Positions 4,227-29,799 of a stretch of DNA of 64,000 bases are shown here, in pieces. Made by a program: the position numbers and the translations under genes. Below the pieces are notes generated by a model. That model had not been told where the DNA came from and made no database searches. It saw nothing but the letters and a program-made list of their open reading frames with translations. This DNA is from a virus (lineage: Duplodnaviria > Caudoviricetes): the IMG/VR virus record IMGVR_UViG_3300029288_000085, positions 80,335 through 144,334 of that record, one strand, 5' to 3'. The stretch's first letter is position 1. Each line of letters begins with the position of its first letter.

Positions 4227-5252
4227 TTAACATCTTCCGATCCGAATATTCTTGCGTATATATCTAGACAATAATTTTTTGGCTAATGAACATATTGAAG
4301 TCTTTTCAGATGAAGATCCATCACCAAAACTTACAGCTACATCTCCTATTGCTACACTTCTAGCTCCTAAATCTTTGTATGTTGAAAGTGTTTCAATCTG
4401 TTGGTTTTCTGCAATGAAAAGAGTCTGTTCACTCTGTGCATCTTTTATATCTTTAGATAGTGGAAAAAATAACTTGAATTGAGAGTTAATTGTAGGAGAC
4501 GCTGAAAACGATGATTCAAGTGTTATAGATCCGGTGGTTACATTTGATTTACTGATATTTCTTATTTCATAAAGTGGAGTACCAGTAGTTATATGTATAG
4601 TACCTTTTGCAAAAAAATTGGTTGGATATTCATTATAAGTAGATGATTTCAATGTGGAATTTCTAAAGGAACTAGTTGTAAATGGGGTTCCACAGTTACC
4701 AGTTTTTACTTCATGATCATCTCGTGGAAATTGTAATGCTTGTGAATCATAATATTTCTGACCAATAAAACTAAATGAATCTATTTCTTTTGCTGATTCA
4801 ATTAGTAGTCTTTTTTTACCTTCAACATCCAAAGTATCCCACTTATTATCATGCCCATACTTATTTCTGATATAATCATTTGCTTCCTTTAAAGTGATAT
4901 ATGAATTTGCACTCATATCACCTAAATTCGTATTTAATGTAACATTTCCAAACACTTCACAAGTTATATATTTTATATATCTATCTCCAGTGCTAGTCTT
5001 TGCACGAATTTTAATCGAATAAGTTTCACCAGTTACTCCTCTATTGAGTCTAAATTTACCTGTTCTTGGAGAACTTGCAGAAACATTAGACATCATACTG
5101 GCATTTTTAGACACATTGTTGTTATCATAAATAGATGCCCAACAACTAGCAATAGTATCACCAGAGGGAAATTCGTTTGTAAAGTCGTACTTTACATTGA
5201 ATATTTCTGCTGGATACTTATATAACCAAGAATTTTCATAGGTAAATTTCAT
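4227..5252 (-). CDS. Head-tail adaptor (DnaT_2-like) fused to an N-terminal fibre-adaptor-like Ig domain
   Basis: C-terminal ANSYITLKEANDYI...LLIESAKEID...FIGQK...QALQFPR...IKDAQSEQ...SVAIGDVAVSF; N-terminal KYPAEIFNVKYDFT...GDTIAS...GVTGETYSIKIRAKTSTG. Confidence 0.65.
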   Translation of the reverse strand: MKFTYENSWLYKYPAEIFNVKYDFTNEFPSGDTIASCWASIYDNNNVSKNASMMSNVSASSPRTGKFRLNRGVTGETYSIKIRAKTSTGDRYIKYITCEVFGNVTLNTNLGDMSANSYITLKEANDYIRNKYGHDNKWDTLDVEGKKRLLIESAKEIDSFSFIGQKYYDSQALQFPRDDHEVKTGNCGTPFTTSSFRNSTLKSSTYNEYPTNFFAKGTIHITTGTPLYEIRNISKSNVTTGSITLESSFSASPTINSQFKLFFPLSKDIKDAQSEQTLFIAENQQIETLSTYKDLGARSVAIGDVAVSFGDGSSSEKTSICSLAKKLLSRYIRKNIRIGRC

Positions 5253-5265
5253 TTGACATACTTCC

Positions 5266-7476
5266 TTATTTAAATGTTGTTTTCCTTTTATTGGATATAA
5301 AGCTTCTAGATCTCGTTATAATTAGACTAGATGACTTTCTTATTTCTGCAAAATTTCTTGTTCTTTCTAAATCATTAAATTCATATCTGAATACATCATA
5401 TGATGAACTTTGTGAACTAGAGCTAGAAGACTTTGAGCTAGATGATTTAGAACTAGAAGACTTAGAGCTAGAAGACTTTGAGCTAGACGACTTAGAACTA
5501 CTGACAGAGCTAGAACTTTGTGAACTAGAGCTAGAAGACTTAGAACTAGACGACTTAGAACTACTAACAGAACTAGAACTTTGTGAACTAGAACTAGAAG
5601 ACTTAGAACTACTAACCGAACTAGAGCTAGAAGACTTAGAACTACTTTGTGAGCTAGAACTAGATGATTTAGAACTAGACGACTTAGAACTACTAACCGA
5701 ACTAGAGCTAGAAGACTTTGAGCTAGAAGACTTAGAACTACTTTGTGAGCTAGAACTAGATGATTTAGAACTACTTTGTGAGCTAGAACTAGAAGACTTA
5801 GAACTACTTTGTGAGCTAGAACTAGAAGACTTAGAACTACTTTGTGAGCTAGAACTAGATGATTTAGAACTACTTTGTGAGCTAGAACTAGATGATTTAG
5901 AACTACTAACCGAACTAGAGCTAGAAGACTTAGAACTACTAACAGAACTAGAACTTTGTGAACTAGAACTAGAAGACTTAGAACTACTAACCGAACTAGA
6001 GCTAGAAGACTTAGAGCTACTAACCGAACTAGAACTAGATGACTTAGAGCTACTAACCGAACTAGAACTAGATGACTTAGAGCTACTTTGTGAGCTAGAA
6101 CTCTGTGAACTAGAACTAGAAGACTTAGAACTAGATGATTTAGAACTACTAACAGAACTAGAGCTAGAAGACTTAGAACTACTAACAGAGCTAGAACTCT
6201 GTGAACTAGAACTAGAAGACTTAGAACTAGATGATTTAGAACTACTAACAGAACTAGAGCTAGAAGACTTAGAACTACTTTGTGAACTAGAACTAGAAGA
6301 CTTAGAACTAGATGATTTAGAACTACTAACCGAACTAGAACTTTGTGAACTAGAGCTAGAAGACTTAGAACTACTAACAGAACTAGAACTTTGTGAACTA
6401 GAACTAGATGATTTAGAACTACTCTGTGAACTAGAGCTAGAAGACTTAGAACTACTTTGTGAACTAGAACTAGAAGACTTAGAACTAGACGACTTAGAAC
6501 TCGACGACTTAGAACTACTAACAGAACTAGAACTCTGTGAACTAGAACTAGAAGACTTAGAACTAGATGATTTAGAACTACTGACAGAGCTAGAACTCTG
6601 TGAACTAGAACTAGACGACTTAGAACTACTAACCGAACTAGAGCTAGAAGACTTTGAGCTAGAAGACTTAGAACTACTTTGTGAGCTAGAACTAGATGAT
6701 TTAGAACTACTTTGTGAGCTAGAACTAGAAGACTTAGAACTACTAACCGAACTAGAGCTAGAAGACTTAGAACTACTTTGTGAGCTAGAACTAGATGATT
6801 TAGAACTAGATCTACTTGAACTTATACTTGAAGAACTTTTACTAGAAGATGATTTACTTGAACTAGACTTAGAACTAGATGATTTAGAACTACTTTGTGA
6901 GCTAGAACTAGAACTAACAAAAGTACCCCCGCCAAAATCATCAATTCTAAGATTAGTTCCATAACAACATAGTCCGATATATCCAGCAGACCCATAAGTT
7001 GAATCTGTTGTGGATAATTTTTCAGTCCATGCTCCTCCTGTGTAATAATAAGCTTTTAAGGCTGTACCTATCGCCGAAAGTCCAATTTTCTCCCCACTGG
7101 CTACATTCTGAGTCGTAGTTGCTAAGGTTGTCCATCCACCATTAAGCATCTCGTTGATGTCCCATGTGTCAGGAGAATCATTCAGATTTATATCTAAAAT
7201 ATATCCATCGCAAGTACCAATGTTTAAGGTTGTAGTTCTAATTGCAAGAGATACTTCATCATTAGTTACAGTGGATATAGTTGCAAAGACTTCGGAAGCA
7301 GCCCCAAATGTTGCAGTGTCCCAAGCTCCAACATTAAGGGCACCAGCAGTTCCTCCTGTACACGCATTACTCTGAATCTTAAGTGTATTGAGCATATTCG
7401 TCCAATTCGCATTGGGCGGGGTGGTATTATTCGCACCCGTGAATGTTTCAATTACACCAGTAGTAGGAAATGCCAT
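5266..7476 (-). CDS. Serine-rich repeat virion protein (N-terminal beta-sandwich/lectin-like head, ~500-aa poly-Ser stalk, short basic C-terminal tail)
   Basis: ORF track. Residues ~1-187 are globular and Trp/Thr/Gly-rich; residues ~188-692 are Ser runs punctuated by K/Q/V. Located in the virion module directly upstream of the adaptor. Confidence 0.75.
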   Translation of the reverse strand: MAFPTTGVIETFTGANNTTPPNANWTNMLNTLKIQSNACTGGTAGALNVGAWDTATFGAASEVFATISTVTNDEVSLAIRTTTLNIGTCDGYILDINLNDSPDTWDINEMLNGGWTTLATTTQNVASGEKIGLSAIGTALKAYYYTGGAWTEKLSTTDSTYGSAGYIGLCCYGTNLRIDDFGGGTFVSSSSSSQSSSKSSSSKSSSSKSSSSKSSSSISSSRSSSKSSSSSSQSSSKSSSSSSVSSSKSSSSSSQSSSKSSSSSSQSSSKSSSSKSSSSSSVSSSKSSSSSSQSSSSVSSSKSSSSKSSSSSSQSSSSVSSSKSSSSKSSSSKSSSSSSQSSSKSSSSSSQSSSKSSSSSSQSSSSVSSSKSSSSSSQSSSSVSSSKSSSSKSSSSSSQSSSKSSSSSSVSSSKSSSSKSSSSSSQSSSSVSSSKSSSSSSVSSSKSSSSKSSSSSSQSSSSQSSSKSSSSSSVSSSKSSSSSSVSSSKSSSSSSVSSSKSSSSSSQSSSSVSSSKSSSSSSVSSSKSSSSSSQSSSKSSSSSSQSSSKSSSSSSQSSSKSSSSSSQSSSKSSSSSSQSSSKSSSSKSSSSSSVSSSKSSSSKSSSSSSQSSSKSSSSSSVSSSKSSSSSSQSSSSVSSSKSSSSKSSSSSSQSSSSVSSSKSSSSKSSSSKSSSSKSSSSKSSSSSSQSSSYDVFRYEFNDLERTRNFAEIRKSSSLIITRSRSFISNKRKTTFK
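5400..6918. repeat. Low-complexity coding tandem repeat (TCTAGT/TCTAGC units) encoding poly-Ser
   Basis: Plus strand reads gaactagaactagaagacttagaactact...; includes 30-bp units such as ctactttgtgagctagaactagaagactta repeated many times. Confidence 0.95.
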
Positions 7477-7985
7477 TAGCTGTTCGCTACCTCATCATCA
7501 GTTGCATCAATACTTTTTGTTGGTCGTGTATCACCATCAACTACTAATTCTCCACTTGTAGTATCTAATCTAGGAGTTAGTCTTCTTCTAGCAGCAAATC
7601 TTAAGACATCACCTAAAGTTTTTTCTCCAATATCACTTCCAATATTATCTCTAATCTCTTGTAGAGGATACCCCATATTTCTAAGTTTATTTACAATCGT
7701 ACTTTTCTGTTGTGATGTGAGATCAGATAATGAATGTGACAACATATTCTTAGGTAATCGTATAACTCCTGTTAATGCAGCTATAGCATTCAAAGTCTGA
7801 TCAGATGCCCGTATTTTAGCAATTATTACATTTCCAAGAGCTTCAGATCCCGCCCAAGCTCCACCATCTCCAAAAATCTGACTTGATAATTCTAAGAATT
7901 TTGGTCTTCTAGTCCATTTTGGAAATCCGTTTGGATCAGGATTAACCCATATAGTATAAGGTGCTATAAACCATGCTACAGACAT
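7476..7985 (-). CDS. Hypothetical protein translationally coupled to the Ser-rich gene
   Basis: ORF track; TAATG overlap at 7476. Confidence 0.7.
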   Translation of the reverse strand: MSVAWFIAPYTIWVNPDPNGFPKWTRRPKFLELSSQIFGDGGAWAGSEALGNVIIAKIRASDQTLNAIAALTGVIRLPKNMLSHSLSDLTSQQKSTIVNKLRNMGYPLQEIRDNIGSDIGEKTLGDVLRFAARRRLTPRLDTTSGELVVDGDTRPTKSIDATDDEVANS

Positions 7986-8011: not shown

Positions 8012-8713
8012 CTATGCTAAAATATAATATTTTCTCAACAAACTGTCGAGACGTTCTGATACTGAAACAATACCAGTATTCTTTCTATTCAACCTATGAA
8101 TTTCCCAAGCAATCCTACTAAGCGGATTCATATGAGAAACTAAGATAGGCTTTTCAGCTCTTTGTCCTCTTTCTTTATAACCAGAACATCCTACATTATA
8201 GGTAGAATTGATTATAGTTACTCTATCTCTAACTGTGGATGACTTTAGAATTTTATTAAGGGTTGGTTCTTCTTTATTCTCACCCTTTGAAATAATAGTT
8301 GTTATAATGTTTATTATATCTTTTGCTGCTGGATATCTCCAAAATACACTTCCACCATTTAATTTAGGATTACTGTATGTTGCAATTCCTACATCTTTTA
8401 TTTCTGGTGGATCGAACTTATAATTTTGCCAACAATCTAGGTCTTGACTCCATATGATGTTATCATTAATAAGATTTTCAAAAATCCACAGTAATGCAAA
8501 CATCTTTGACCCAGTTAAACAATGTTTATTCAATTCTATATTATTTGCACTTACTCCCATAAATTCAAAATCAAAATTACTCACTAAGATAATATCCTTC
8601 TTATTCCATTCTAATTCAATCATGTTATCTATCTGTGCTTTTAAATTAGTGATTATATTTTCTTTTGAATAACGACCTTTTGATTGCACGTTTGCAACCA
8701 TTAATCTTTTCAT
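8012..8713 (-). CDS. Putative GT-A glycosyltransferase
   Basis: DLD (DxD) motif, LNGGSVF, YNVG; context. Confidence 0.55.
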   Translation of the reverse strand: MKRLMVANVQSKGRYSKENIITNLKAQIDNMIELEWNKKDIILVSNFDFEFMGVSANNIELNKHCLTGSKMFALLWIFENLINDNIIWSQDLDCWQNYKFDPPEIKDVGIATYSNPKLNGGSVFWRYPAAKDIINIITTIISKGENKEEPTLNKILKSSTVRDRVTIINSTYNVGCSGYKERGQRAEKPILVSHMNPLSRIAWEIHRLNRKNTGIVSVSERLDSLLRKYYILA

Positions 8714-9561
8714 ATATCTATCTCTTGCTCAAAATTCTTAATAAGATGTGCCTTACCCCAATGTTGATTCATATTTGCTTTAAATTTTTTACAAGCAATA
8801 TTACAAAGTGAAATTAAAGCATTTCTTCTCTGGGTATACTTCCAATCTTTATCAGGATAGTTATCAATAAAATGACGTTTATGATGTTCTACTACTTGAC
8901 AGAAATCACCAGTGAACTTTGTTATTGTAAATCCCAAATGGTATGCTCTACACAGAATATCCTCATCATCAAATCCATAAGCAGAACCGAAGGATTCATC
9001 GTAGCCTCCTAAATCATCAATAAATCTACTTTTGAAAAATCCTAATCTTCCTCTATTTGTTTGCTTACTCTTAATAAAGACTAGTTTGTCAGTATCAAAC
9101 TGATTAGCTATTTCATTTATTCTTTTCGAAAATCCAAAAAGGGTTAAATGATCTGCATCAACATTATTGACTATATCTCCTGATGCAATTTTGAAAGCTA
9201 TGTTTCGTGAGTGTGTCATACTATAGAACTTTGGTTCTATTGTTTTATAGTAATTCAAATAACCTTCTTTAATATATTCTGACAACTCATGCTTAACAAA
9301 GTCATCCATATCATCATTACTGTTATAGTTCAATAATACAAACTCCGTATTTGGGTACGTTTCAATATTATCAATTAAATTAGTAACATATGTTTTTTTA
9401 AGATCATAAGTTCTTCCCATACACGTAGTGCAAATTGAAATCTTATATTCTTTTCTTATTGGATTTATAAATTCTGGTAAAACATACTCAAGGTTGAAAT
9501 ACTTTTCCCACACGTCTTCATTAGTCAAACCTAATAAGAAATCATCTCTCATCCTCATCAT
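8710..9561 (-). CDS. Glycosyltransferase family 2/7-like
   Basis: ISICTTCMGR, SRNIA, NVDAD, LGGYDESF...YGFDDEDI. Confidence 0.85.
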   Translation of the reverse strand: MMRMRDDFLLGLTNEDVWEKYFNLEYVLPEFINPIRKEYKISICTTCMGRTYDLKKTYVTNLIDNIETYPNTEFVLLNYNSNDDMDDFVKHELSEYIKEGYLNYYKTIEPKFYSMTHSRNIAFKIASGDIVNNVDADHLTLFGFSKRINEIANQFDTDKLVFIKSKQTNRGRLGFFKSRFIDDLGGYDESFGSAYGFDDEDILCRAYHLGFTITKFTGDFCQVVEHHKRHFIDNYPDKDWKYTQRRNALISLCNIACKKFKANMNQHWGKAHLIKNFEQEIDI

Positions 9562-10076
9562 AGTTTAGTTGCCCACACACAATCCTCTAACAGTGTAATA
9601 TTGTTACCAAATAATCTATCTATCACTACAGCTACATCCTTATGTCTTCGAGAATTATAGTCATGCCCAGACAATATACCATCTTTTCTGATATGAGGAA
9701 TCCAAGCAATGATATCCCGTTCTAATGCTGCCATGGAATGATCTGCGTCTATATAAACCATGTCAAAATATTCTAGTGGAAATATACTTGCTGCTTCAAC
9801 AGATTCCATCCTTAAAACTTTCAAAGCAGAAAAATATCTCATTAAAGTACAGGCATATTTATATAGACTATTCCAATCGTTTGGAGTAAGTCTAGACATA
9901 CGACCTTTATCACTTCCAAAGAAGCACCACGAATCAATTGCCCAATATTCCTTCACTTGTTTAGTATTCTTAAGTACATGTTTTACGGTTTTACTTTTCC
10001 ATATTCCTACTTCTGCAATCCTTTTACACTTATTATCTAGTATAAGTTTTAATACTGATTCACTATGAATTGGCAT
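9558..10076 (-). CDS. Class I SAM methyltransferase (Methyltransf_24-like)
   Basis: AEVGIW...IDSW...FDMVYIDADH...GILSGHDY. Confidence 0.85.
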   Translation of the reverse strand: MPIHSESVLKLILDNKCKRIAEVGIWKSKTVKHVLKNTKQVKEYWAIDSWCFFGSDKGRMSRLTPNDWNSLYKYACTLMRYFSALKVLRMESVEAASIFPLEYFDMVYIDADHSMAALERDIIAWIPHIRKDGILSGHDYNSRRHKDVAVVIDRLFGNNITLLEDCVWATKL

Positions 10077-12591
10077 AAATATCTATAATTACCTCATTCC
10101 ACTTTGCGGGGTCTAAATTAGCTTTTGCCCAATCTTTAGCATTTTGACCCAATGCTTGTCGAAATTTTTCTTTTCTTATTAATGTACTGAGATGAACTAA
10201 ACATTCATCATAATGAGTAAAATAGTATCCTGTATCACCATGAATTATTCTATCTTTTGTACCATCTCTAGGTTCTGAGAGAATTGGCAATCCGGTAGCT
10301 AAAGCTTCTGCAATACAACGAGGATAGTTATCTCTCCACATATTACTTGTTCGATATAAATATATATGTCCTTTGCTTAAAAATTCTTCTACTGGGATTT
10401 CATCCCATTTAAAGAACTTCATCCGTGGTTCATCCTTAAAGAATTCTGCAAGTTCTTTATGAGCTTCCATAAACCAAAATTGTGTATTCTTAGTATCTTT
10501 GAGAAGTCTCTGATAAAATTTAGTATCTAATTCCTTATCAAGATGTTTCTGCCATATATGTATTTTGCTTCCATTCTTCACAGATTCATTAGTAGTATAT
10601 TTTCTATAATCTGGAGTACAATGTTTAAGTACTATGAGAGGTTCATCTTTTTCTCTTGGTTTTGTACATACCTCGTAGAATTTATTCATATCTATAGCTC
10701 CAAATAATACTATCTTCTTCGTATTATCAAATCCAATAACTTGTCTTTCCCATTCCTGTTTCTTCTCTTCATTTTGAAATATAACTGCCTTCAACTTATT
10801 TGATTTGATAAGCCATTCTGAAATATCAGGATTCTTGAGATGACCAAACATATAATTAATGCCTATTATAAGTATAGAACATTTATCAACTAATTTCTTA
10901 CCAGCTTGTAAAAAATCATTTATATTATCGTTACCATAGAATAGTAACGGGGTATTTTCAATACATTCAGATATACATCTTCCACCATCGGGCTTGAAAC
11001 TATAGTTTGATAGGTGTACATTCTTAGATTTTATATCTTTATAATTTTCATGTACACTATCCCAAGGAAATAATTGGACATCCCACCCTGCATCACCTAA
11101 TACATCAGCAATCTTAATCAGACTTTGTTCCCCACCACCATGACTACTGAGACTACCTAACAGATTTATAGATTTAGTTTTTTCAACAATTTCAAAGCTA
11201 TTAGAAATTTTAATTGCATCATCAGTATTTACTTTATCGCATGCAACACACGTTGTACAATCATCACTATCAGAAGCTATGCAATCTCTTCTGTTCATAT
11301 ATGTATAAATATCTCCTTCATAATATCGTTTTATTGCTCTTATGACATCGTCCGAAGTAATCACATCCATACACTCTTGGATAGTTCTACCATCAGAAGA
11401 AGTTGTACTTTTACATAAATTCTTATTTTGCTTTGGATCTTTAGGTATAGGTATAATCCTAGATTTCCAACATCCACCATTATCACAACATGTAAATACT
11501 CCATTTGTATGAAGAATCTGATGATTACAGTATTCTGTCCACGCTTTTGACTCTCTACCACCTTCTATAACTACACAGGGCTTTCTCCCTTTTTCAGTAT
11601 ACTTAGATGGAATTGCTGCTGCAAGATGCATTAACATACTGATACCGCTAATGCAACCATCAGCATGATAGACTAGGGAAACTAGTGGTCTCATATTATC
11701 ATTGAATTTATCAGTCAAATCAATGATATTATTCAACTTTTCTACTAAATGATCACTTCGTCCTATAACTACAAATTTTATCTTTCCTTCAAAATGGTCT
11801 ATGACTTCTTGGAATCTTCTCCAATCCCAAATCTTTGTAGTGGCATCCCGTTTTCCTCCAGGAGCTATTAGCCAATACTTATTATATCCATATACCTTTT
11901 GTATAAGATCATGTTTCTTTTCATCTTCACTTAAATGAATATCCCCACGTTGTCTAGCAAATGACTTTCCAAAGTTCTTATATTGATTTACTAATGAGAT
12001 GAATGGTTCATGAGAATTAGCATTCTTGTCTGGTTTACCAAGACAAGGATCTCCTACTTCACCATTTGCAAAAGCACTACAGAATTCTCCTAATGACACA
12101 GGAAGACTTTTATGTAAATCAGTGATAGCAATCATATCTAATAGAAATGCCATCGTGAAGTGTACGTATGTATTATTTGCCGACGCAATTGCTGGATATC
12201 CAACATCATAATATTCAACATCTTTGTCTTCTTTTTTCAAAGACCTATCTATATATGGATTATTTTCCCAAATCCAAGGTTGACTACTATCTACATTTAT
12301 TCTTATATCTGGAAAGAGAAGTTTGAAATCTCTAACCCCTGCACTAAACATTAAGGCATCTCCTACTGCTCGTTTATGTGCAAAGATTATTTTTCTATCA
12401 TTATTATCTGATTCTGTTAAATTCTGAGCCACTTCTTTTTTGAATATTGTATCATCAGGAGTATGAAGATGTAGATGACCGTCATCAAACTTCAACCCGA
12501 TCAATACTTGGCTTAAACTTTTATCACCAATTTCTTTTGTTTTGAGTATATCTTCTGCCTCATCTAGAAGTCTCTGTTTTATCTTATTCAC
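10063..12591 (-). CDS. Bifunctional glycosyltransferase (GT9 heptosyltransferase-like plus GT4-like)
   Basis: N-half AVGDALM...ENNPYI...TTKIW...ISMLMHLAAA; C-half GGGEQS...DNYPRCIAEALATGLPI...IIHGDTGY. Confidence 0.8.
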   Translation of the reverse strand: MNKIKQRLLDEAEDILKTKEIGDKSLSQVLIGLKFDDGHLHLHTPDDTIFKKEVAQNLTESDNNDRKIIFAHKRAVGDALMFSAGVRDFKLLFPDIRINVDSSQPWIWENNPYIDRSLKKEDKDVEYYDVGYPAIASANNTYVHFTMAFLLDMIAITDLHKSLPVSLGEFCSAFANGEVGDPCLGKPDKNANSHEPFISLVNQYKNFGKSFARQRGDIHLSEDEKKHDLIQKVYGYNKYWLIAPGGKRDATTKIWDWRRFQEVIDHFEGKIKFVVIGRSDHLVEKLNNIIDLTDKFNDNMRPLVSLVYHADGCISGISMLMHLAAAIPSKYTEKGRKPCVVIEGGRESKAWTEYCNHQILHTNGVFTCCDNGGCWKSRIIPIPKDPKQNKNLCKSTTSSDGRTIQECMDVITSDDVIRAIKRYYEGDIYTYMNRRDCIASDSDDCTTCVACDKVNTDDAIKISNSFEIVEKTKSINLLGSLSSHGGGEQSLIKIADVLGDAGWDVQLFPWDSVHENYKDIKSKNVHLSNYSFKPDGGRCISECIENTPLLFYGNDNINDFLQAGKKLVDKCSILIIGINYMFGHLKNPDISEWLIKSNKLKAVIFQNEEKKQEWERQVIGFDNTKKIVLFGAIDMNKFYEVCTKPREKDEPLIVLKHCTPDYRKYTTNESVKNGSKIHIWQKHLDKELDTKFYQRLLKDTKNTQFWFMEAHKELAEFFKDEPRMKFFKWDEIPVEEFLSKGHIYLYRTSNMWRDNYPRCIAEALATGLPILSEPRDGTKDRIIHGDTGYYFTHYDECLVHLSTLIRKEKFRQALGQNAKDWAKANLDPAKWNEVIIDIYANS

Positions 12592-13148
12592 TTCTTAACC
12601 TTATAAAAAAGTTCACGCCAAGTATCTAGAGGTAAATCCATAATCCCATTAACCCCAACCATTTGTTTACGCAATTCTGCTTTTCTGAATATGTTTTCTT
12701 CAGTCAAAACTACAGTCAATGAAATATTAAATTTAGAATAATCTGTAACACCATAAAGTAAATGTTCTACTTTTGTCTGATTACAAATTTTAGATAGGAT
12801 AATGTTAAGCCAACCTACATCCATACTTAATACTCTTGAAATTCCACCTGTCAATAAATATAAAGATAACTGCGTAGTCAACCTAACAATATCAACACTA
12901 TCTCTCTCATATCCTAAATTGATAATCTTTTTAATATTTAGTTCTTTACCAATACGGAATAAATCATCTGACCTTTGTTCATATACAGCAGATTTACAAA
13001 TATCATCTCTACAAAAAAATATTGGTCTATCATCATCTTTATTTATAACTACTATATCATAAACATCTTTAGGAACAGATAGGATAAGACCAGAACAATG
13101 TTTAACCCAATCATAAGAATTATTACTAACTATAAGCGACTTGGACAT
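12588..13148 (-). CDS. Hypothetical protein, weak PIG-L/LmbE deacetylase-like resemblance
   Basis: QRSDDLFRIGKELNIKKIINLGY segment; canonical HxDD motif not evident. Confidence 0.35.
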   Translation of the reverse strand: MSKSLIVSNNSYDWVKHCSGLILSVPKDVYDIVVINKDDDRPIFFCRDDICKSAVYEQRSDDLFRIGKELNIKKIINLGYERDSVDIVRLTTQLSLYLLTGGISRVLSMDVGWLNIILSKICNQTKVEHLLYGVTDYSKFNISLTVVLTEENIFRKAELRKQMVGVNGIMDLPLDTWRELFYKVKK

Positions 13149-13151
13149 AAT

Positions 13152-14162
13152 TTACCTCAAATAGTTTTTATTATCTGTATAAATATTGCTTGAAATATCA
13201 ACTTCTGACCACCAATTAGGGTTTTCTTTGTACCATTTGATAGTTTTCTGAATACTCCCTTTTAAGTTAGTTATTGGGGCAAAGTCTAACTCCTCTTTTA
13301 TTTTAGAACTATTTATAGCATATTGTCTATCATTTCCTGGACGATTAAATACTTGTTCTATATAACTACTCCATAACTCTATGTTATCCTCACCAGTTAA
13401 TTCCTTCAGCAGTAGCATCAACATATACTTATTAGTACAACGGATTCCACTACCAACATTATAGATTTGTCCTACTATCCCCCCATTGAGAACTTTCATA
13501 ATCCCATTACAACAATCTTGTACATATATCCATTCTCTTTTCTCATTGCCTTCTCCATGTAAGAACATTTTTTCTCCTCGAAGAAATCTAAGTATATTAA
13601 AAGGAACTAATTTCTCTGGATATTGTCTTTCCCCCATATTATTTGAAGGGCGTACAATAATTAATGGAAGATTATATGTTTTATAATAAGACAACAATAA
13701 AAGATCAGCAGCAGCTTTACTAGCAGCATAAGGGCTATTTGGAATCATAGGAAATGATTCATCTGCTTCACCACTATAACTATCACCATATACCTCATCT
13801 GTTGAAATATGAATGAATCTTTCTATCCCAAGTTTAAGTGAACAATATGCTAAATTGAATACACCAAGTACGTCTGTCTTAACAAAATCCATAGGATTAG
13901 TAATAGATCTGTCAACGTGAGTCTGAGCAGCAAAATTAACTACAGTATCAATTTTGTGATATTTCATAATATCTATTATAGTTGGATCTTCTATTCCAAC
14001 ATATAAAATCTTCTCAAAGTCTACATTCCTGACATTTTTTATATTACCAGCATAAGTCATTTTATCTAAGATTACCACATTAAACTTGTAGTTATTATAT
14101 AACTGCTCAACAAAATGACTGCCCATAAAACCACAAGATCCGGTAACAAGTATATTTTTCAC
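13152..14162 (-). CDS. rmlB: dTDP-glucose 4,6-dehydratase
   Basis: ILVTGSCGFMGS, DKMTYAGN, NFAAQTHVDRSI, ISTDEVYG, SPYAASKA, RPGNDRQYA. Confidence 0.93.
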   Translation of the reverse strand: MKNILVTGSCGFMGSHFVEQLYNNYKFNVVILDKMTYAGNIKNVRNVDFEKILYVGIEDPTIIDIMKYHKIDTVVNFAAQTHVDRSITNPMDFVKTDVLGVFNLAYCSLKLGIERFIHISTDEVYGDSYSGEADESFPMIPNSPYAASKAAADLLLLSYYKTYNLPLIIVRPSNNMGERQYPEKLVPFNILRFLRGEKMFLHGEGNEKREWIYVQDCCNGIMKVLNGGIVGQIYNVGSGIRCTNKYMLMLLLKELTGEDNIELWSSYIEQVFNRPGNDRQYAINSSKIKEELDFAPITNLKGSIQKTIKWYKENPNWWSEVDISSNIYTDNKNYLR

Positions 14163-15005
14163 CTATTCAATACTTTCTCCTTCCTTTATAAATTGATGAT
14201 ATAATTCATAAAGTTGTTCTTTGGTAAAAAGACATCTACTACTTTTAATTAAGTTTTTTTCTGCTAATATTAATCGTAAGTTTATTGGGGAAGCTATAAT
14301 TTCGGATGGTATATTATTTTCAAAACCTTTGGCAACTGAATATATGTGATCTAAGACATATCCAGTACTACCATTTCTAGATCTTTTTAAATTTTGTGAA
14401 TTTATTAAATAGTAGTACTTTGAAAAATTTATATTAGATAATTTTCTTACTTCAGTTTGGTATACACTTGCTTTTTCTAACTCTTCTTTTGAATATTTTT
14501 TTTGATTAAATATTGGACACTCATCCTTACATCTTTGAGAGCAGTAAAATCTTCTATCTCCCCTACTTTTACCATTTATAACTGCAATTCTTCCTTGAAC
14601 ACTATACCAACTTGGTGTAAACCATTGTTTACATTTTAGACATTTGACTTGTAGTATATTATGATCTTCTGGATTTCTACGTGTTTCTTCACAGAAAGAA
14701 ATTTGTGAAGCATATGTATCATACAACGGTAATTTTTTACTACGTACTCCCCCCTTCCAATTTCTATTTTTATTTCCTAAAGAATCAATACTTCTTTTTT
14801 TTCTATCTTCTTTAGATATATCTTTTCTAGCACAGGAGTTTGAACAATATAAACCAAACGAATGACCAGTTGATAAAAATGGTTCCCCACAAATTTTACA
14901 AAAGTCAACATACTTATATCTTTCTGACTTGTTTGATTTAGAATACCAATGCCCACTTTTACAGCTATATCTCAAATTTTCTAGATTATCCCAACAAATT
15001 TTCAT
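14163..15005 (-). CDS. Homing endonuclease, paralog of 1047-1985 with a different HNH C-terminus
   Basis: Shared MKI.W.N.ENLRY and TY.SQISFCEE.R.NP...NILQV.C..CK.W.TP; C-terminal LDHIYSV...ASPINL...N..K. Confidence 0.75.
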   Translation of the reverse strand: MKICWDNLENLRYSCKSGHWYSKSNKSERYKYVDFCKICGEPFLSTGHSFGLYCSNSCARKDISKEDRKKRSIDSLGNKNRNWKGGVRSKKLPLYDTYASQISFCEETRRNPEDHNILQVKCLKCKQWFTPSWYSVQGRIAVINGKSRGDRRFYCSQRCKDECPIFNQKKYSKEELEKASVYQTEVRKLSNINFSKYYYLINSQNLKRSRNGSTGYVLDHIYSVAKGFENNIPSEIIASPINLRLILAEKNLIKSSRCLFTKEQLYELYHQFIKEGESIE

Positions 15006-15680
15006 CTATCTCTCATCCTTATAATTATAAACCTTCAACAGAGAAGAAAGTTTTTCAAATAAGTCATTAATAGAAAAATCACACACATTAGTAAAGAACC
15101 CATTATATATAGTCTCCCAATTCTTGTATAAATCTATCTGAGAGGTATCCAAACCTCTAGGGTATCTTTCTTTTTGCCCTTCATGTCTAATTCTTTCCCA
15201 AGGTTTTAACATAATATCTTCAAAAGGTAATCCTAAAAACTTACACATTTTGTCAGTTTCTAATTTTATGTTAGTAATTACATCTTCAACCTTTATAGTT
15301 AATATATTTCCTGGAAAATTTTTATATAGTTCACAATATATAAAGGCAGCCCAAAACATATCTTTTATGTTACCTTTAAAACTTGCATCATCTGCTCTTT
15401 TCCATCCTCTGAAGATTTTACTTGCTGCTTGATCAAATGGATGACGAGTAGTCCAAATAATCTTACTATCAGGGTTATTTATAAAAAACCTACATACAAC
15501 ATTAAAATTAGGTATGTAGTTAGTATCACACTTTGTTAAATAGTTATGGATATATAATGTATCTCTCAAAAATAATTGTTTATCTTCGGGATAAGATGAG
15601 GGGATCAAAAAAGATGAACCCGAAATAATTTCAAGTATCAAATTTGTCCCAGAACGTCCATTACTTAAAACTACTACCAT
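15006..15680 (-). CDS. PAPS-dependent sulfotransferase
   Basis: 5'-PSB loop GRSGTNL, 3'-PB motif RHPFDQAAS, and KVED...MCKFLGLPF. Confidence 0.8.
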   Translation of the reverse strand: MVVVLSNGRSGTNLILEIISGSSFLIPSSYPEDKQLFLRDTLYIHNYLTKCDTNYIPNFNVVCRFFINNPDSKIIWTTRHPFDQAASKIFRGWKRADDASFKGNIKDMFWAAFIYCELYKNFPGNILTIKVEDVITNIKLETDKMCKFLGLPFEDIMLKPWERIRHEGQKERYPRGLDTSQIDLYKNWETIYNGFFTNVCDFSINDLFEKLSSLLKVYNYKDER

Positions 15681-15689
15681 TTAAATCAC

Positions 15690-16337
15690 CTATTTTAATT
15701 CTATGAGTGAGCAATAACTTGCCCAAGGAGTTGAAACTATTCTCTTAGCAACTGCTTCATAATCCGTGAAAAAAACAATACTAGGTTTTCTATGACTAAG
15801 AGCTAGAAAACTAATGAAACCTTCTGGTCCTAAGAATCCTTCTGAGTTAATTACTATATCTATTATATCAATAATATTAGTTTTACTAATAAGATTAATA
15901 CAACCTTTTATATCCTTATATTTTGAACTAGTACCCACTAATACACATCTATTTGTGTAACTCTTTATAGTTTGTTCTACATATGATATTTCTAATTCCT
16001 TACAATTATATCCTTTGTCCTTTCCTGAATGTGGTTGAATTATGATATATGGTTTCCTAATTTTATAATGAATCCGTGAAGTATCATATCTCAAATATGG
16101 AAAATACTCCATGTCTGGAGAATGTGAATCCGATGTAATTTCTTCTAGATCAGTTCTCGGATTTTCAACTGAAACCCATTTTACATTTGGTGCTAGTGAA
16201 AATACATTCTGTATTGACTCATTCCAATAGGAATGCTTAGTATGATGATAAACTATTATATTGTCTTTAATATTGAGTAGTTTACAAGTCTGAATGTATG
16301 CATCACCCAGTGAACCATTTACAGAAAGTTCTTTCAT
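15690..16337 (-). CDS. GT9-like glycosyltransferase
   Basis: GSLGDA, YIIIQPHS, INLISKTN, FLGPEGF. Confidence 0.65.
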   Translation of the reverse strand: MKELSVNGSLGDAYIQTCKLLNIKDNIIVYHHTKHSYWNESIQNVFSLAPNVKWVSVENPRTDLEEITSDSHSPDMEYFPYLRYDTSRIHYKIRKPYIIIQPHSGKDKGYNCKELEISYVEQTIKSYTNRCVLVGTSSKYKDIKGCINLISKTNIIDIIDIVINSEGFLGPEGFISFLALSHRKPSIVFFTDYEAVAKRIVSTPWASYCSLIELK

Positions 16338-17053
16338 ACTTGTCCATATTTTCGCATAGTTAGCAGATCATCTTTCATTAAACCTACACGTTCCAAAATA
16401 GGGATAAAACCTCCCTGACCGGCATAGTGTGTCACAAAAGCATCTGCTCTAGATTTGCCACACCAATTTTCTGTGAACATAGACATAAAGTTATATTCTA
16501 TTGGAAGTTCATAAATTGGAATATTCATTTTATGAATTTGATATCCAAGATAAACATCATCGAAACCTAGTCCCAACCAGAGATTTTCTTCTGATACTGG
16601 TTTAAATATTTCTCGTGATGACTTTGGAAACAACGCAAATCCAGTGTTTATATATCCTGTTTTCCAACCAACATCACCAAACTGCTTCTGTACTAGAGTA
16701 ATTCTTTTTCTTCTATCTTCCTGTCTACTACCTACATCCTCATAGATTGAGGCAATATGATTTTCAGGAACGACTTCAAATATATTAGGACACTTGTTTG
16801 AAATTAAGATATCAGTATCTACAGATAGAATAGAATCATACTCTTCAAACAAATCATAGAATTGCATTATCCGATAATGTTTATGCAATCCTTTACAATC
16901 TTCAATAACTTTAAAATCAGCCCCACATCTCTCAGCATAGGATTTAAGTAAGGGATGCGTCAAAATTGCCATATCAGTTTGTGTTTCATCGGATCTTGTT
17001 GCTATAAGTCTTTTCATTTTTCCCTCAAAAGTTATATAATTTCCTAAAATCAT
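16334..17053 (-). CDS. GT8-like glycosyltransferase
   Basis: ILSVDTDILI, YINTGF, LPIEYN, THYAG. Confidence 0.75.
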   Translation of the reverse strand: MILGNYITFEGKMKRLIATRSDETQTDMAILTHPLLKSYAERCGADFKVIEDCKGLHKHYRIMQFYDLFEEYDSILSVDTDILISNKCPNIFEVVPENHIASIYEDVGSRQEDRRKRITLVQKQFGDVGWKTGYINTGFALFPKSSREIFKPVSEENLWLGLGFDDVYLGYQIHKMNIPIYELPIEYNFMSMFTENWCGKSRADAFVTHYAGQGGFIPILERVGLMKDDLLTMRKYGQV

Positions 17054-17924
17054 TAATCTTTGTTAGACCAGACTCCTCTATTAACTTATGATGTTGACCA
17101 TTATAAACATGGAGATATCCATTAGAATTTGGGGTGAAATCTTTTGCATACCATGGAGATTTTAATCCTGATAATTCTTGGTTCTTATTGACCCAATATT
17201 CCTCATCACCAAGATAATAACTTCTATATATCTTCATAAGCCAATCAGTTTTTAATTTCTGATTTGTTCCAGCATATTCTGATTGCCAAAAATCATATTT
17301 CATCCACGGATTTTGGAGCATAGAGTAGTGAAACATCAGATTCGTTGTCTTATATATCTTATTTACTTTCTGATCCCATCTTTGTGTAGGAATAAATCTC
17401 TGATTCTCATTTTCTATTTTGAATAATCTAAAATGTGATCCAAAAAGATAATGTTGCATATTGATATAAAAGAATCGTTCTGATAATTCTATCTTGTTGC
17501 AGTTGTCAAAATCTATAACCCTATAAATTTCTTCTACTAGTTCTTGGCTAAAAAATTCATCCACATCTAGAGTAAATATCCAACTTCCTTTTTCAAAATA
17601 CACAGAGTTATATTTCAGCATAGTATTGAAAATATTAGCTTTTTCAGTTGAATGTTTTCCATCACCAACTAAAGCACCTGATATAACTTCCATATGCTTG
17701 CATTTCCAGTTATTGATTTCTCGTTCAGTAATGAAATAGTCTTTAAACTCATTAGCCAAATTATATGTATTATCTTCATATTTTGTCATGTCTGGAGAAT
17801 GTGGAGCAACCCACACTAGCACTTCATCACAGATATCCACTGCTTGTTTAAGTGCTAATTCTACGAATCCCTCAGATCCCCATGCTGCCATCAAACCAAT
17901 TATTTTTCTAGTCTTATCCACCAA
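17025..17924 (-). CDS. GT2-like glycosyltransferase
   Basis: WIFTLDVDEF, RLFK, MFHYS. Confidence 0.65.
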   Translation of the reverse strand: MVDKTRKIIGLMAAWGSEGFVELALKQAVDICDEVLVWVAPHSPDMTKYEDNTYNLANEFKDYFITEREINNWKCKHMEVISGALVGDGKHSTEKANIFNTMLKYNSVYFEKGSWIFTLDVDEFFSQELVEEIYRVIDFDNCNKIELSERFFYINMQHYLFGSHFRLFKIENENQRFIPTQRWDQKVNKIYKTTNLMFHYSMLQNPWMKYDFWQSEYAGTNQKLKTDWLMKIYRSYYLGDEEYWVNKNQELSGLKSPWYAKDFTPNSNGYLHVYNGQHHKLIEESGLTKINDFRKLYNF

Positions 17925-18442
17925 TCTTCTCCTTCATGTTTTATCTTATCTAAACTACCAAAATATTTTGATATGCCATCCTTGACATATTTACGAGTAT
18001 AATCATGCCCTGCAATATATCCACCTTTCTTTACTTTGGGCATATATAATTCTACGTCCTTGCAAACTATTTCAACCCTATGATCACCATCTATATAAAC
18101 AAAATCTAATTCTTCATCTGGGATACGAGTATGAGCATTCCATGAATAATCTATTATCCATACTATTTTAGACTGATAACTTTTCAGATATTCTTTAGCA
18201 AAATCAAGAGATTCAGGTGACTGTTTATTAGTAGAAAGTGTTCCATCTTTTGCAGAAGGGTATGGTTGATAAGAATCTATAAGATAAATAGTTTTAATAT
18301 TCAATGTTGACAATATGCGTAATGCATTATACCCATATTGCACACCTACTTCTGCAACAATCATTTCACTTCTACTTCTCAAAGCTTCTAACTTCAAAAA
18401 TGGTCTGTTCTTATTATTTTGTCTTTCAGGATTAGGTAGCAC
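17900..18442 (-). CDS. Class I SAM methyltransferase (Methyltransf_24-like)
   Basis: AEVGV...LDFVYIDGDH...GGYIAGHDY. Confidence 0.85.
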   Translation of the reverse strand: MLPNPERQNNKNRPFLKLEALRSRSEMIVAEVGVQYGYNALRILSTLNIKTIYLIDSYQPYPSAKDGTLSTNKQSPESLDFAKEYLKSYQSKIVWIIDYSWNAHTRIPDEELDFVYIDGDHRVEIVCKDVELYMPKVKKGGYIAGHDYTRKYVKDGISKYFGSLDKIKHEGEDWWIRLEK

Positions 18443-19682
18443 TTTTCTGTCCTAATAATATTTTCTGATGCCAAGGAATCTTATCCTTGAACATTTCTAC
18501 AAACCATTTCTGTATTTCTTTCAATTGTTGATTTGTGAAATTGGGTGTAGACCATATATCATTTGCGTACTCATCTACTTTACTCCAATCTACATCTTTA
18601 AATCTTTTGTAATCATAAAACTCTGTCCCTGGATATGGAGCTAGAATTGTAAATCCAATAACATCAGGATCTATATCTTTAGCTAATTCCATCGTTTTCA
18701 TTATTGAATCATTATCTTCTTCTGGTGTTCCTAATAGGAAGAATGCTCGTCTACTTAACCCATACTTTCTTCCCCATTCAAATACTTTCTTGATCTTATT
18801 TACAGTTACACCCTTATTTATACTGTTCAAGATTTTCTGAGAACCTGATTCTACTCCTACCATAATCATATCACAATCTGCTTTTGTCATCATCTCCAAA
18901 CTTTTTTCAGTTGCATAAGCAGCATGAACCATACAATCCCACTTGATATTATTTCTTCGCTTAATCTTCTCATTACAGAAGTTTAGTACTACGTTGTCAG
19001 ATACTGCCCATGTAGGATCTACAAATTTGATTCTATTTATATTATATTCTTTCTGCAAATACTCTATTTCATCCATCACATCGTTAGGATTTCTTATTCG
19101 CACATTTCCTTGTGTCATGCAGAATTCAGCACACATTTTACAATGACTCTTACACCCTCTTATACTCTGAACACTAGCAATCCTCTCCCCAAAATTCTTT
19201 TCACAATAGTCAAACTGTCTTTCTATCTTCATTGCTTTTCTATCTGGCCAATATCTAACGTAAGGAATAAGAAAACCTTCAAAGATTCTAAGTGATAAAT
19301 TCTTCAGAGATAATACAACAGGCAGAGTTACATCCCCCTCTCCTGCAATAATATAGTCAACAAATTTTGGGATTTCTAAAAAACCTGTTCTATAAGAAGC
19401 AGTTACATGCCATCCCCCCAATATAGTTTTTACATTAGGGTTGATCTTCTTTATCTCTTCCACAAAATATAATGCACGAGAATACGTAGGGCTTGTAGCA
19501 GATAAACATACAAAATCAGCCTTTGAGGATTCCTTAATTATATCTTCAGATTTATCAAATGCTTCGTGAAAAAAAAGAATATCTATATTTTTTATTAATA
19601 ACTTACATGCTTGAATAAGATATCCCGACCAAAGTGGTTCCCAAAAATTATGATAATATGGTTGTATAAAACTTACTTTCAT
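18432..19682 (-). CDS. Cobalamin-binding radical SAM enzyme
   Basis: N-terminal ILGGWHVT...IAGEGD B12 domain; RGCKSHCKMC CxxxCxxC; GVESGSQKIL; PYPGT. Confidence 0.9.
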   Translation of the reverse strand: MKVSFIQPYYHNFWEPLWSGYLIQACKLLIKNIDILFFHEAFDKSEDIIKESSKADFVCLSATSPTYSRALYFVEEIKKINPNVKTILGGWHVTASYRTGFLEIPKFVDYIIAGEGDVTLPVVLSLKNLSLRIFEGFLIPYVRYWPDRKAMKIERQFDYCEKNFGERIASVQSIRGCKSHCKMCAEFCMTQGNVRIRNPNDVMDEIEYLQKEYNINRIKFVDPTWAVSDNVVLNFCNEKIKRRNNIKWDCMVHAAYATEKSLEMMTKADCDMIMVGVESGSQKILNSINKGVTVNKIKKVFEWGRKYGLSRRAFFLLGTPEEDNDSIMKTMELAKDIDPDVIGFTILAPYPGTEFYDYKRFKDVDWSKVDEYANDIWSTPNFTNQQLKEIQKWFVEMFKDKIPWHQKILLGQKSAT

Positions 19683-20647
19683 TCTACTGCTCTCTTTATA
19701 ACCTCACAAATAAATCCTACTTTATTTTCCATTCCTTTATATACTGGTAATGCTATTATCCTATTATATATGTAGTCAGTGTTTGGAAGACCTTTTATTA
19801 AAGGTTCATAATAAATTTTTACTTCAATCCCATATTTATAAAAAGCGTTAGCAATTTTATCTCTAGTTTCTTTATCCTTTAATACAATTGCATATACACT
19901 TTGATTAGAACACTCTGGGATACTTTGTTCAGTATACTCTATATTATCAGATAGATATTTCCTATAACTATCTATGATTCCAAATCTAAGACCTTGATTA
20001 TTCCGAAAATGTTTTATAGACTCTAAAGCTACTCTAGCATTTATTTCAGTTAACTTAGAATAGTTATTAACTAACTTGATACATTCATTTGCTAATGAAC
20101 GATCTTTAGTAAGAATGACCCCGCCTTGCATACCACTAACAAGTTTAGTAAATGATAAAGATACTACTTCTAAATATCCTCTTTGTCCAAGTTCAGGTAA
20201 ACCAAAACCATGTGCGGCATCTACAATTAGATATTTACATCCAATATAATCACTGTTGAACTGATTACCAAACGTATCTACCCCTATTCGAATATCACAT
20301 GATACATTCCTCTCTTCAGATAACCAAGAATCTAACTTTACATCTTCAAAATATACATTTGCGTTATTAGATTCTGCTGCATATAATGTGCTATACCAAG
20401 TAAAAGCTGGAAGTGAAATAATTGATTCATAAACTGATAATGATTTTATTGCTATGGCAAGCCCTGAAGTACAATTTGCACAAGAGATTGCAAACGCATT
20501 ATGATGTTTCTCAAAATATTTTTCTAACTCTTTAATATAACTACCCTTTGCTACATTCCCACTTTTTAGAATATTAGCAACATCTTCAGCAATTGTATCT
20601 TCATTCTCTACTGAAAATCTATGGAATGGTACGATTACTTCACCCAC
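19679..20647 (-). CDS. DegT/DnrJ/EryC1/StrS sugar aminotransferase
   Basis: ANCTSGL, PAFTW, VDAAHGFG, SLSFTK...GGVI, IIALP. Confidence 0.85.
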   Translation of the reverse strand: MGEVIVPFHRFSVENEDTIAEDVANILKSGNVAKGSYIKELEKYFEKHHNAFAISCANCTSGLAIAIKSLSVYESIISLPAFTWYSTLYAAESNNANVYFEDVKLDSWLSEERNVSCDIRIGVDTFGNQFNSDYIGCKYLIVDAAHGFGLPELGQRGYLEVVSLSFTKLVSGMQGGVILTKDRSLANECIKLVNNYSKLTEINARVALESIKHFRNNQGLRFGIIDSYRKYLSDNIEYTEQSIPECSNQSVYAIVLKDKETRDKIANAFYKYGIEVKIYYEPLIKGLPNTDYIYNRIIALPVYKGMENKVGFICEVIKRAVE

Positions 20648-21564
20648 TTTTTTACCTCCTTAACAAAAATATTTTCATTTGGTGTCCATTCAATATTATT
20701 TAATATAATATTTGAATTGTCACAATCACTTTTTTTATCTTTTCCAACATATAGACATGACACAAATGCACCACTTCTTTCAAAGACTTTCATATATCGT
20801 TGTTTAAAGTGTCTATCTAATTCGGCAATAAAACCACCACTTCGAGTAGTACCCTTTTCGGGTAATATTGCACGACCAACAATAAATATTTTATCATCAG
20901 TTACTGAGAAATCTCTACACAGAAATCTGGAATCAAATTTTATCTGTGGGCCTTTGTTATTTATAAGCATATTTTTTCCTAAGATATAAGGTTCATCATC
21001 AATAAAATAAAAACAATCAGATTCAATATCAAATGATTCAGCAGATAGCATTTCAAACTTTTTATTCAAAGTAACTAAACCGCCAGTGTCTGAGTCATTT
21101 ATTTTACTTAAATTTATATAAATTTTATCATTATGGACATCTATACTAGTGAATGTGTCAAAAAGACTTGTGTATTCTTCACAGTTAAATTTTATCATAT
21201 ATACATCATAGCTCTTTTCAAGACTGAGGATTACAATTCCTTTTATCCCATTTGATGCAATAAATGTATTATCCCCTTGGGCTTTAGATTTTCCTAATGC
21301 TAGATCAATATTATTTCCATCTAAGTTATAAATTGTAAATATAGGATTACTCTTAGTATAAGTACAAATATTAAGATTAGTATTGATGATTATACTATTA
21401 TTAGTTTCAGATATACCACAAAAGTGTTCATTGTCATTTTCTAATCTATATAAGACATTTAAATCTTTTGTGACATCATCAAATGTATATAGATTGCCAT
21501 CGCCGGAACCTATCAATACTTTATTTTCTATCCCATTTATCTTCAATTGGTTTTCCATAAACAA
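20635..21564 (-). CDS. Hypothetical protein, possible beta-propeller
   Basis: Beta-strand-rich repeats; no clear motif. Confidence 0.45.
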   Translation of the reverse strand: MFMENQLKINGIENKVLIGSGDGNLYTFDDVTKDLNVLYRLENDNEHFCGISETNNSIIINTNLNICTYTKSNPIFTIYNLDGNNIDLALGKSKAQGDNTFIASNGIKGIVILSLEKSYDVYMIKFNCEEYTSLFDTFTSIDVHNDKIYINLSKINDSDTGGLVTLNKKFEMLSAESFDIESDCFYFIDDEPYILGKNMLINNKGPQIKFDSRFLCRDFSVTDDKIFIVGRAILPEKGTTRSGGFIAELDRHFKQRYMKVFERSGAFVSCLYVGKDKKSDCDNSNIILNNIEWTPNENIFVKEVKKWVK

Positions 21565-25005: not shown

Positions 25006-25006
25006 A

Positions 25007-29797: not shown

Positions 29798-29799
29798 TA

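Follow-up and report, generated by a model that had tools for sequence, protein, structure and literature searches.

A phage gene for a lectin-like protein with a 504-residue polyserine stalk, next to a 23-kb sugar-pathway block: a candidate glycosylated virion fibre

Results

The poly-Ser gene and its product

The DNA analysed here (the window; 64,000 nucleotides, nt) belongs to a virus of the Caudoviricetes (Duplodnaviria), IMG/VR record IMGVR_UViG_3300029288_000085, of which it represents positions 80,335 to 144,334, the last 64 kb of a single 144,334-bp contig of 32.7% G+C. On its minus strand, at 5266..7476, lies a gene for a protein of 736 amino acids (aa), which we call the poly-Ser gene. 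The product consists of an N-terminal domain or head (residues 1–187; 6916..7476, minus strand) that starts with MAFPTT, ends with DDFGGGT and is predicted to form a ConA-like, CBM66-like β-sandwich; a stalk of 504 aa (residues 188–691; 5404..6915, minus strand) with a net charge of +51; and a basic tail of 45 aa (5269..5403, minus strand), in which 11 Lys and Arg residues against five Asp and Glu give a net charge of +6. Directly upstream, on the same strand and translationally coupled to the poly-Ser gene, is a gene for a 169-aa protein (7476..7985), here called the partner. Upstream of the partner, an uninterrupted block of approximately 25 sugar-pathway genes extends over 23 kb (8012..30798, minus strand). 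An initial annotation, made from the sequence alone, had described a protein with a lectin-like head, a poly-Ser stalk of about 500 residues and a short basic tail, and this layout was found as described (187 + 504 + 45 aa).

Serine accounts for 410 of the 504 stalk residues (81%), the remainder being 50 K, 24 Q, 18 V, one I and one R. The annotation had given the Ser runs as 3–7 residues long and punctuated only by K, Q or V. The run lengths are in fact 3 (35 runs), 4 (27 runs) or 6 (33 runs) and do not span 3–7, and the three named residues provide nearly all of the punctuation, the single I and R being the exceptions. Units include SSSK (33 copies), SSSSSSQ (23), SSSSK (17), SSSSSSV (10) and SSSSV (8). 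The reported alternation of the two Ser codon boxes was borne out: TCT occurs 173 times, AGT 139, TCA 48, AGC 34 and TCG 16 (237 TCN as compared with 173 AGY), and the box is switched in 74% of adjacent Ser–Ser pairs. At the DNA level, the stalk is made of imperfect repeats with periods of 33, 48, 66 and 99 nt over approximately 5418–6849 (Tandem Repeats Finder). For the whole poly-Ser protein, Ser plus Thr content is 63%, as compared with 6–22% for neighbouring proteins. The phage genome has a single tRNA gene (Tyr), and no tRNA-Ser that would support the 410 Ser codons of this one gene. A plus-strand open reading frame (ORF) at 5291–6964 (557 aa, LELEDLELDD...) was rejected as a gene, being the mirror image of the Ser repeat; the minus frame is the true coding frame because homology of the N-domain fixes it.

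Neither a signal peptide nor a membrane helix was found in the poly-Ser protein, whose maximum 19-residue hydropathy is 0.84 and whose N-terminus (MAFPTTGVIETF) is without a hydrophobic core. A regular-expression search of the same protein revealed no LPXTG-like sortase motif. These findings uphold the earlier judgement that the protein is not a secreted serine-rich repeat (SRR) adhesin. A simple polymer estimate, with factors taken from general knowledge, makes the bare 504-aa stalk a coil of ∼8 nm radius; extended by glycans, it would measure ∼125–180 nm.

A predicted carbohydrate-binding-module-like head from a very large family

The head was modelled with AlphaFold (AF2) from a profile of 69 family members. 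The model is all β, with a mean predicted local distance difference test score (pLDDT) of 97.2 and a predicted template-modelling score (pTM) of 0.92. Foldseek comparison with solved structures gave as the top match CBM66 of Bacillus subtilis (PDB 4B1M/4AZZ; E 1e-7), with a template-modelling (TM) score of 0.68 by query and 0.76 by target over 170 aligned columns, a root-mean-square deviation of 3.0 and 16–19% identity. Lectin domains of galactocerebrosidase, VIP36, legume lectins and galectins followed, and two baseplate/fibre chains of mycobacteriophage Douge were also matched. Among predicted viral structures (BFVD), the best matches were actinophage minor tail, tail fibre and receptor-binding proteins, several of them DUF7257 proteins with TM scores of up to 0.80. 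Pfam detects DUF7257 weakly in 4 of the 69 family members (E ≥ 8.7e-4), the window's own domain having no match; sequence searches of Pfam, PHROGs and PDB with the whole protein and the domain profile gave none either. The model thus predicts for residues 1–187 the ConA-like or carbohydrate-binding-module (CBM)-like jelly roll that had been expected of them, and the head may accordingly bind carbohydrate.

The domain belongs to a family that is very common in metagenomes, with 2,500 clusters (50% identity) at E ≤ 0.001 and 1,263 at 1e-10. The window's domain matches it over its full length, with 55–58% identity to the nearest members. The usual member is a protein of 200–220 aa, in which the MAFPTT start, nearly invariant across the family, and the DDFGGGT domain end are followed by a short Gly/Ala/Ser linker and a short C-terminal peptide. 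At most 75 residues follow DDFGGG in 87 of 164 inspected sequences, mostly as such a linker and peptide, and the post-domain peptide is roughly 10–30 aa in most members. Recurrent kinds of C-terminal peptide are LLGVG-like, PWYAYxQQ-like, or a Tyr with a run of Arg. Other members carry long and highly variable extensions, comprising tandem peptide repeats, PKD, Ig, LamG or glycosidase domains and extra copies of the domain itself; a basic peptide is found again at the end of several of them, and giant proteins carry arrays of the jelly-roll domain. In one 996-aa member (P0005), the extension holds a DUF4038/collagen-binding-type glycosidase between LDALIQ repeats, an enzyme-bearing version of the same fibre.

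The tail of the poly-Ser protein is the counterpart of the short C-terminal peptides of stand-alone members. Its closest relative in the same gene arrangement is a 214-aa protein (P0198, at locus L016) with a 14-aa Gly-rich linker; the heads are 58% identical and the partners 64%. Comparison of stalk lengths among homologues, proposed in the initial annotation, therefore sets a hugely expanded linker in the window against most members of ∼210 aa with a short one, and the simplest reading is that the window protein would be the common ∼210-aa protein in which a linker of about ten residues has grown to 504.

Two length alleles of the stalk

A second contig (143,217 bp; ENA sample ERZ27247363) matches the window in gene order, and its flanks are 99.5% identical. 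Its poly-Ser gene encodes 359 aa, with head and tail identical to those of the long allele and a stalk of ∼127 aa, which by the same polymer estimate would extend to ∼32–46 nm. The two alleles differ in their DNA by no mismatch and by one clean deletion of 1,131 nt between exact 92-nt direct repeats (copy 1 at 6719..6810 and copy 2 at 5588..5679, both minus strand). Such a difference is typical of recombination or slippage between repeats and in line with the expansion and contraction that had been anticipated for the array; an assembler shortcut would give the same picture. A search of IMG/VR and JGI metagenomes for further alleles yielded distant relatives only, and cluster look-up gave single-member clusters.

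The sugar-pathway block

The glycosyltransferases of the block belong to Pfam families 2, 8, 9 and group 1, and include an 842-aa fusion of GT9 and GT1 domains. Sugar-building enzymes are represented by an NDP-sugar 4,6-dehydratase, a DegT-type aminotransferase and a PglD-like hexapeptide acetyltransferase, and modifying enzymes by six class-I methyltransferase domains, a B12 radical-SAM enzyme, a sulfotransferase and an APS kinase. The block also holds a GH130-like (mannoside phosphorylase-like) protein and a FemAB-like protein (23324–24238 and 25007–25951, minus strand), which hint at phosphorolytic sugar transfer and at addition of amino acids to the glycan. Between 30798 and 4227, almost every gene overlaps or abuts the next, and no ORF in this stretch has a membrane helix; a flippase, a polymerase and a lipid-carrier transferase are accordingly all absent from the block. 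Judged against what is generally known of exported polysaccharide pathways, this content would be expected for a complex glycan built directly on a soluble cytoplasmic acceptor rather than for an exported polysaccharide.

Among the Pfam matches of the block ORFs (E ≤ 0.01) there was none to a DUF1975 priming enzyme; seven ORFs had no match of any kind. Glyco_transf_9 matches were obtained for the 842-aa protein (3.8e-6) and for the ORF at 29800–30798 (2.3e-4). When these GT9-like domains were compared by phmmer with PDB sequences, in view of the autotransporter heptosyltransferases TibC/AAH (BAHT), no TibC match was found.

The partner and the recurrent cassette

The partner stop codon and the poly-Ser ATG share one base in a TAATG junction. 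In L002, L016 and L017, a jelly-roll gene is likewise preceded by a partner homologue that overlaps it by 1 nt; L003 also has a homologue upstream, and viral contigs provide more cases. At least four clusters (P0040, P0055, P0065 and P0080) join partner and jelly roll in one protein, with the partner on the N-terminal side. Because of this conserved upstream position, the overlap and the fusions, the two proteins very probably act together. An AF2 model of the partner has a pLDDT of 94.8, with no clear fold match: Foldseek against PDB gave nothing at E ≤ 0.001 (best 0.016), VIA-align Z scores did not exceed 4.3, and the protein atlas was uninformative. Nor did the partner sequence match any solved structure.

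The jelly-roll gene, which together with the partner gene makes up the cassette, occupies different sites in different phages. It lies between portal and scaffold/capsid genes in L014 and L015, between terminase and portal in L003, after the portal in a Mu-like head module in L004, after the capsid gene in L017 and in the phage studied here, and in tail modules in L005 and L019. The jelly-roll gene is consistently inside head or tail modules, at more than 10 loci. We conclude that the cassette is a mobile accessory of morphogenesis modules, and this recurrence favours a protein of the particle. Taken together, the sequence comparisons appear to define a jelly-roll family and its partner that are very large, without Pfam match, and sited in phage morphogenesis modules.

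Ser-rich linkers and glycosyltransferases at other loci

Ser-rich low-complexity linkers were found at three loci, namely in this phage (504 aa), in L002 (∼300 aa of SxSxS type, 50% Ser) and in L019 (∼85 aa, SPSV). In all three, several glycosyltransferase genes lie directly upstream of the partner or cassette. The L002 set consists of a sugar isomerase, a methyltransferase, a B12 radical-SAM enzyme and three GT2 genes, and the L019 set of three GT2 genes; the sugar enzymes of the window are unrelated to both, and the ORF just upstream of the partner (8012–8713) is unrelated to the equivalent genes in L002 and L019. The recorded neighbourhoods of six loci without a Ser-rich linker (the P0003 contig, L003, L005, L014, L015 and L017) contain no glycosyltransferase. 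Two further loci without such a linker have a single one. L004 has one large multi-domain glycosyltransferase enzyme 4 kb away, and L016 has one GT9-like gene and methyltransferases beside its stalk-less 214-aa member. The tally covers loci other than L018 and L020–L024, at which single-sequence phmmer with the sugar enzymes is too insensitive to score glycosyltransferases.

The L004 enzyme (15108–18365) is a 1,085-aa protein composed of GT2, TPR, methyltransferase and GT1 domains, and lies downstream of a family member with GIPSAEAFGQ repeats. A B12-binding radical-SAM enzyme stands beside a Methyltransf_24 gene in both of the unrelated clusters of the window (18432–19682, minus strand) and of L002 (1719–3134), a shared pair that could represent a common C-methylation step.

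Setting in the late operon

The poly-Ser gene is part of the head-to-neck operon. The order of genes on the minus strand is large terminase (38803–40710), portal (37148–38719), major head protein (34225..35187; phrog_371 at 7e-8), a few small ORFs, the sugar block, the partner, the poly-Ser gene and a head–tail adaptor of Ad1 type (4227..5252; PF20557 at 2e-14, PF23148 at 1.4e-7, phrog_477 at 1.8e-16). The stretch of the operon that ends at the adaptor starts with the major head protein. The adaptor gene lies 13 nt downstream of the poly-Ser gene, and the N-terminal domain of its product resembles the fibre–tail adaptor gp77 of Ralstonia phage GP4. This domain could be a docking site for a fibre; the cassette-adjacent adaptors of L016 and L017 have no such match. 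A 167-aa protein of L016 (2718–3221), the locus of the closest relative, has a match to the phage GP4 fibre I protein gp80 that falls short of the curated cut-off (PF23140, 4.5e-5). In the near-identical contig that bears the short allele, a tail-terminator-like gene and a tape-measure gene of >1,700 aa come next, from which we conclude that the phage is long-tailed.

Elsewhere in the operon, a homing endonuclease gene of HNH/NUMOD type (1047–1985, minus strand) is inserted amid neck and tail genes, and a small sigma-factor-like or helix-turn-helix protein (41600–42007, minus strand) heads the late operon upstream of the terminase genes.

Discussion

We interpret the poly-Ser protein as an accessory virion fibre composed of a CBM-like head, a disordered Ser tether that is most likely O-glycosylated, and a basic C-terminal peptide, and we put the probability of this interpretation at roughly one in two. 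Its ancestor would have been the common phage protein of ∼210 aa, with head, short linker and short C-terminal peptide, made together with an upstream partner of ∼165 aa; in this phage, amplification of repeats would have lengthened the linker. The tether would then accept dense O-glycans in the host cytoplasm, before the particle is assembled, from the soluble enzymes that the 23-kb block of its operon encodes. The result would be a mucin-like bottle-brush, probably methylated and sulfated, that stiffens and protects the tether, and whose length would shift in frame by recombination or slippage between repeats. Glycosylation of the stalk, and even sulfation, is plausible given the adjacent 23-kb cluster with its sulfotransferase and APS kinase, and those same two genes allow the speculation that the 51 positive charges of the stalk could pair with sulfated sugars.

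A bolder form of this proposal, to which we would give somewhat less than even odds, is that the phage makes its own mucin: a lectin-headed fibre to which a cytoplasmic pathway of ∼25 genes adds methylated and sulfated amino-sugar glycans, with repeat recombination tuning its reach or the thickness of the coat, and with Ser linkers and glycosyltransferases recruited to the cassette more than once. That Ser-rich linkers and sets of glycosyltransferase genes occur together speaks for the stalk as the acceptor, with the reservations that the numbers are small and that L016 is a warning.

Several observations weigh against the glycosylated fibre. The orientation of the protein is ambiguous, since the partner is coupled or fused N-terminally and PKD, Ig, LamG and glycosidase add-ons are on the C-terminal side. 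The initiating protein O-glycosyltransferase cannot be named in the block, where neither a DUF1975 nor a TibC match was obtained. L002 and L019 share one upstream gene and are therefore not fully independent, so that the independent cases of a Ser-rich linker with glycosyltransferases number two, not three. As L016 pairs sugar-type genes with a stalk-less member, such genes may serve another acceptor. The short allele could be an assembler shortcut. Finally, in 50,697 phage records no match among cultured phages was found either by blastn of the head module or by tblastn of the domain, and tblastn with a more typical family member gave only four matches, all to uncultured GenBank records.

Regarding orientation, we lean slightly towards the C-terminal peptide as the anchor, with the head displayed. 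The layout of the family as head, linker and short C-terminal peptide favours this arrangement, as do the distal-binding character of the fold, the giant proteins with arrays of the domain, and L019, in which the domain is tied through a Ser-rich linker to a C-terminal Sipho_Gp37-like tail-module domain. The converse is that head and partner dock on the capsid or neck, while the glycosylated Ser brush points outwards with its basic end, as a glycocalyx, a shield or a sticky tether rather than as a lectin stalk. In favour of this arrangement are the near invariance of the MAFPTT N-terminus, the position of the partner, which without exception is N-terminal, and the fact that it is the C-terminal parts that vary, as they do in N-terminally anchored fibres. 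Nevertheless, the peptide of ∼10–30 aa that ends most members would be an odd distal part, the L019 fusion places a tail-module domain at the opposite end, and the head matches distal binding modules. We consider the converse arrangement rather unlikely.

A second alternative retains the fibre and dispenses with its glycans: the stalk would be a plain flexible polyserine linker, and the sugar block would decorate the capsid, other virion proteins or a host molecule. Precedents exist for both halves of this proposal. Polyserine linkers that join carbohydrate-binding modules are known from the Saccharophagus and Teredinibacter genomes (PMC2386152, PMC2699552), and in mycobacteriophages it is subunits of the capsid and tail tube that are glycosylated (as cited in PMC12619734); the L016 arrangement points the same way. 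Against this, the sugar genes are adjacent to the poly-Ser gene and co-oriented with it in one tight operon, and Ser-rich linkers recur with glycosyltransferase sets at the same cassette, with unrelated enzymes. Furthermore, the window stalk is ∼10 times longer than the polyserine linkers known to us from that literature. We consider a plain linker improbable.

It is more improbable still that the protein acts outside the particle, as an intracellular or released lectin-like or enzyme-like factor that is merely sited in a structural operon. The ConA-like fold class to which the head is matched also includes glucanases and lyases, and the relative P0005 bears a glycosidase domain, both of which would suit such a role; placement in head or tail modules at more than 10 loci, the lack of a secretion signal in the poly-Ser protein and the fusion to a tail-module domain in L019 all argue otherwise. 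That the 1.5-kb repeat or its length is an artefact of assembly is very improbable: two assemblies do differ by 1,131 nt inside an array of the sort that short-read assemblers mishandle, but no stop codon interrupts the 504 codons of the stalk, the frame then leads into the tail that the two assemblies share unchanged, both contain a Ser-rich stalk, and within the long array the longest exact repeat is 139 nt and no 141-mer recurs.

Glycans on phage particles bear on encounter with the host, stability of the particle, escape from recognition and the design of therapeutic phages. To our knowledge, they have been shown experimentally only for a few mycobacteriophages, where particle glycans blunt antibody recognition. 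If the glycosylated fibre is real, tailed phages can build a glycocalyx-like layer, or fibres stiffened by glycans, on their own, and this phage would unite an acceptor made for the purpose, of mucin size, with a full 23-kb pathway. The cassette and the block are proposed as a concrete set of substrate and enzymes for cytoplasmic protein O-glycosylation.

Comparison with known systems

Like CBM66 of B. subtilis, the head is modelled as a β-sandwich of the same topology; unlike a recognizable CBM66, it shares only 16–19% identity and has no match in Pfam or among PDB sequences. Its best viral structural matches are the DUF7257 domains of actinophage minor tail and receptor-binding proteins, from which it differs in that the window protein has no Pfam match and in that the family domain is usually alone, in a protein of ∼210 aa, and mostly in head modules. 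The joining of a carbohydrate-binding module to another part by a Ser homopolymer is shared with marine polysaccharide degraders (PMC2386152, PMC2699552); their linkers are much shorter and belong to secreted enzymes, which have no sugar cluster dedicated to them.

Mimivirus encodes the glycan pathway for its fibrils, which carry rare amino and methylated sugars (PMC8456856, PMC10117803). A virus-encoded, multi-gene sugar pathway is common to both systems, with decoration of the surface only proposed for the phage of the window. Mimivirus is a giant virus of eukaryotes, and its carriers are GMC-oxidoreductases, not a Ser tether, without sequence relation to the proteins described here.

In serine-rich repeat adhesins, a cluster of transferases O-glycosylates the protein in the cytoplasm before export (PMC5796085). 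The window resembles the loci of such SRR glycoproteins of Gram-positive bacteria (Fap1, GspB and PsrP, with GtfA/GtfB) in having a long Ser-rich tract beside several glycosyltransferases, and the proposed likeness extends to glycosylation of the tract inside the cell before final placement and to a binding domain carried on a glycosylated stalk (PMC5796085). It differs in that Ser, interrupted by K, Q or V, makes up nearly the whole tract, where SRR tracts are built of SASASAST-type dipeptides, in that the gene is phage-encoded and inside a structural operon, and in the lack of SecA2/SecY2 in the window and of a detected DUF1975-type enzyme. Because the features of export and anchoring fail, there being neither a signal peptide nor LPXTG, the poly-Ser protein would resemble a Ser-rich glycoprotein adhesin in its working but is not a member of that family.

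The mycobacteriophages Che8, Corndog and Myrna carry glycans on capsid and tail-tube proteins, at the C-terminal ends of the subunits according to the account in PMC12619734 (citing Freeman et al. 2023). In those phages, as here, glycosyltransferase genes are embedded among structural genes; for the window, the glycans are proposed from the genes alone. The candidate acceptor is of a different kind, being a dedicated 504-residue Ser tether on a separate lectin-like protein, and the cluster, at 23 kb, greatly exceeds theirs in size and includes genes for amino sugars, methylation and sulfation. The poly-Ser system would thus fit a wider and recently recognized theme of phage virion glycosylation, to which it appears to add a dedicated acceptor of mucin size and a far more extensive pathway.

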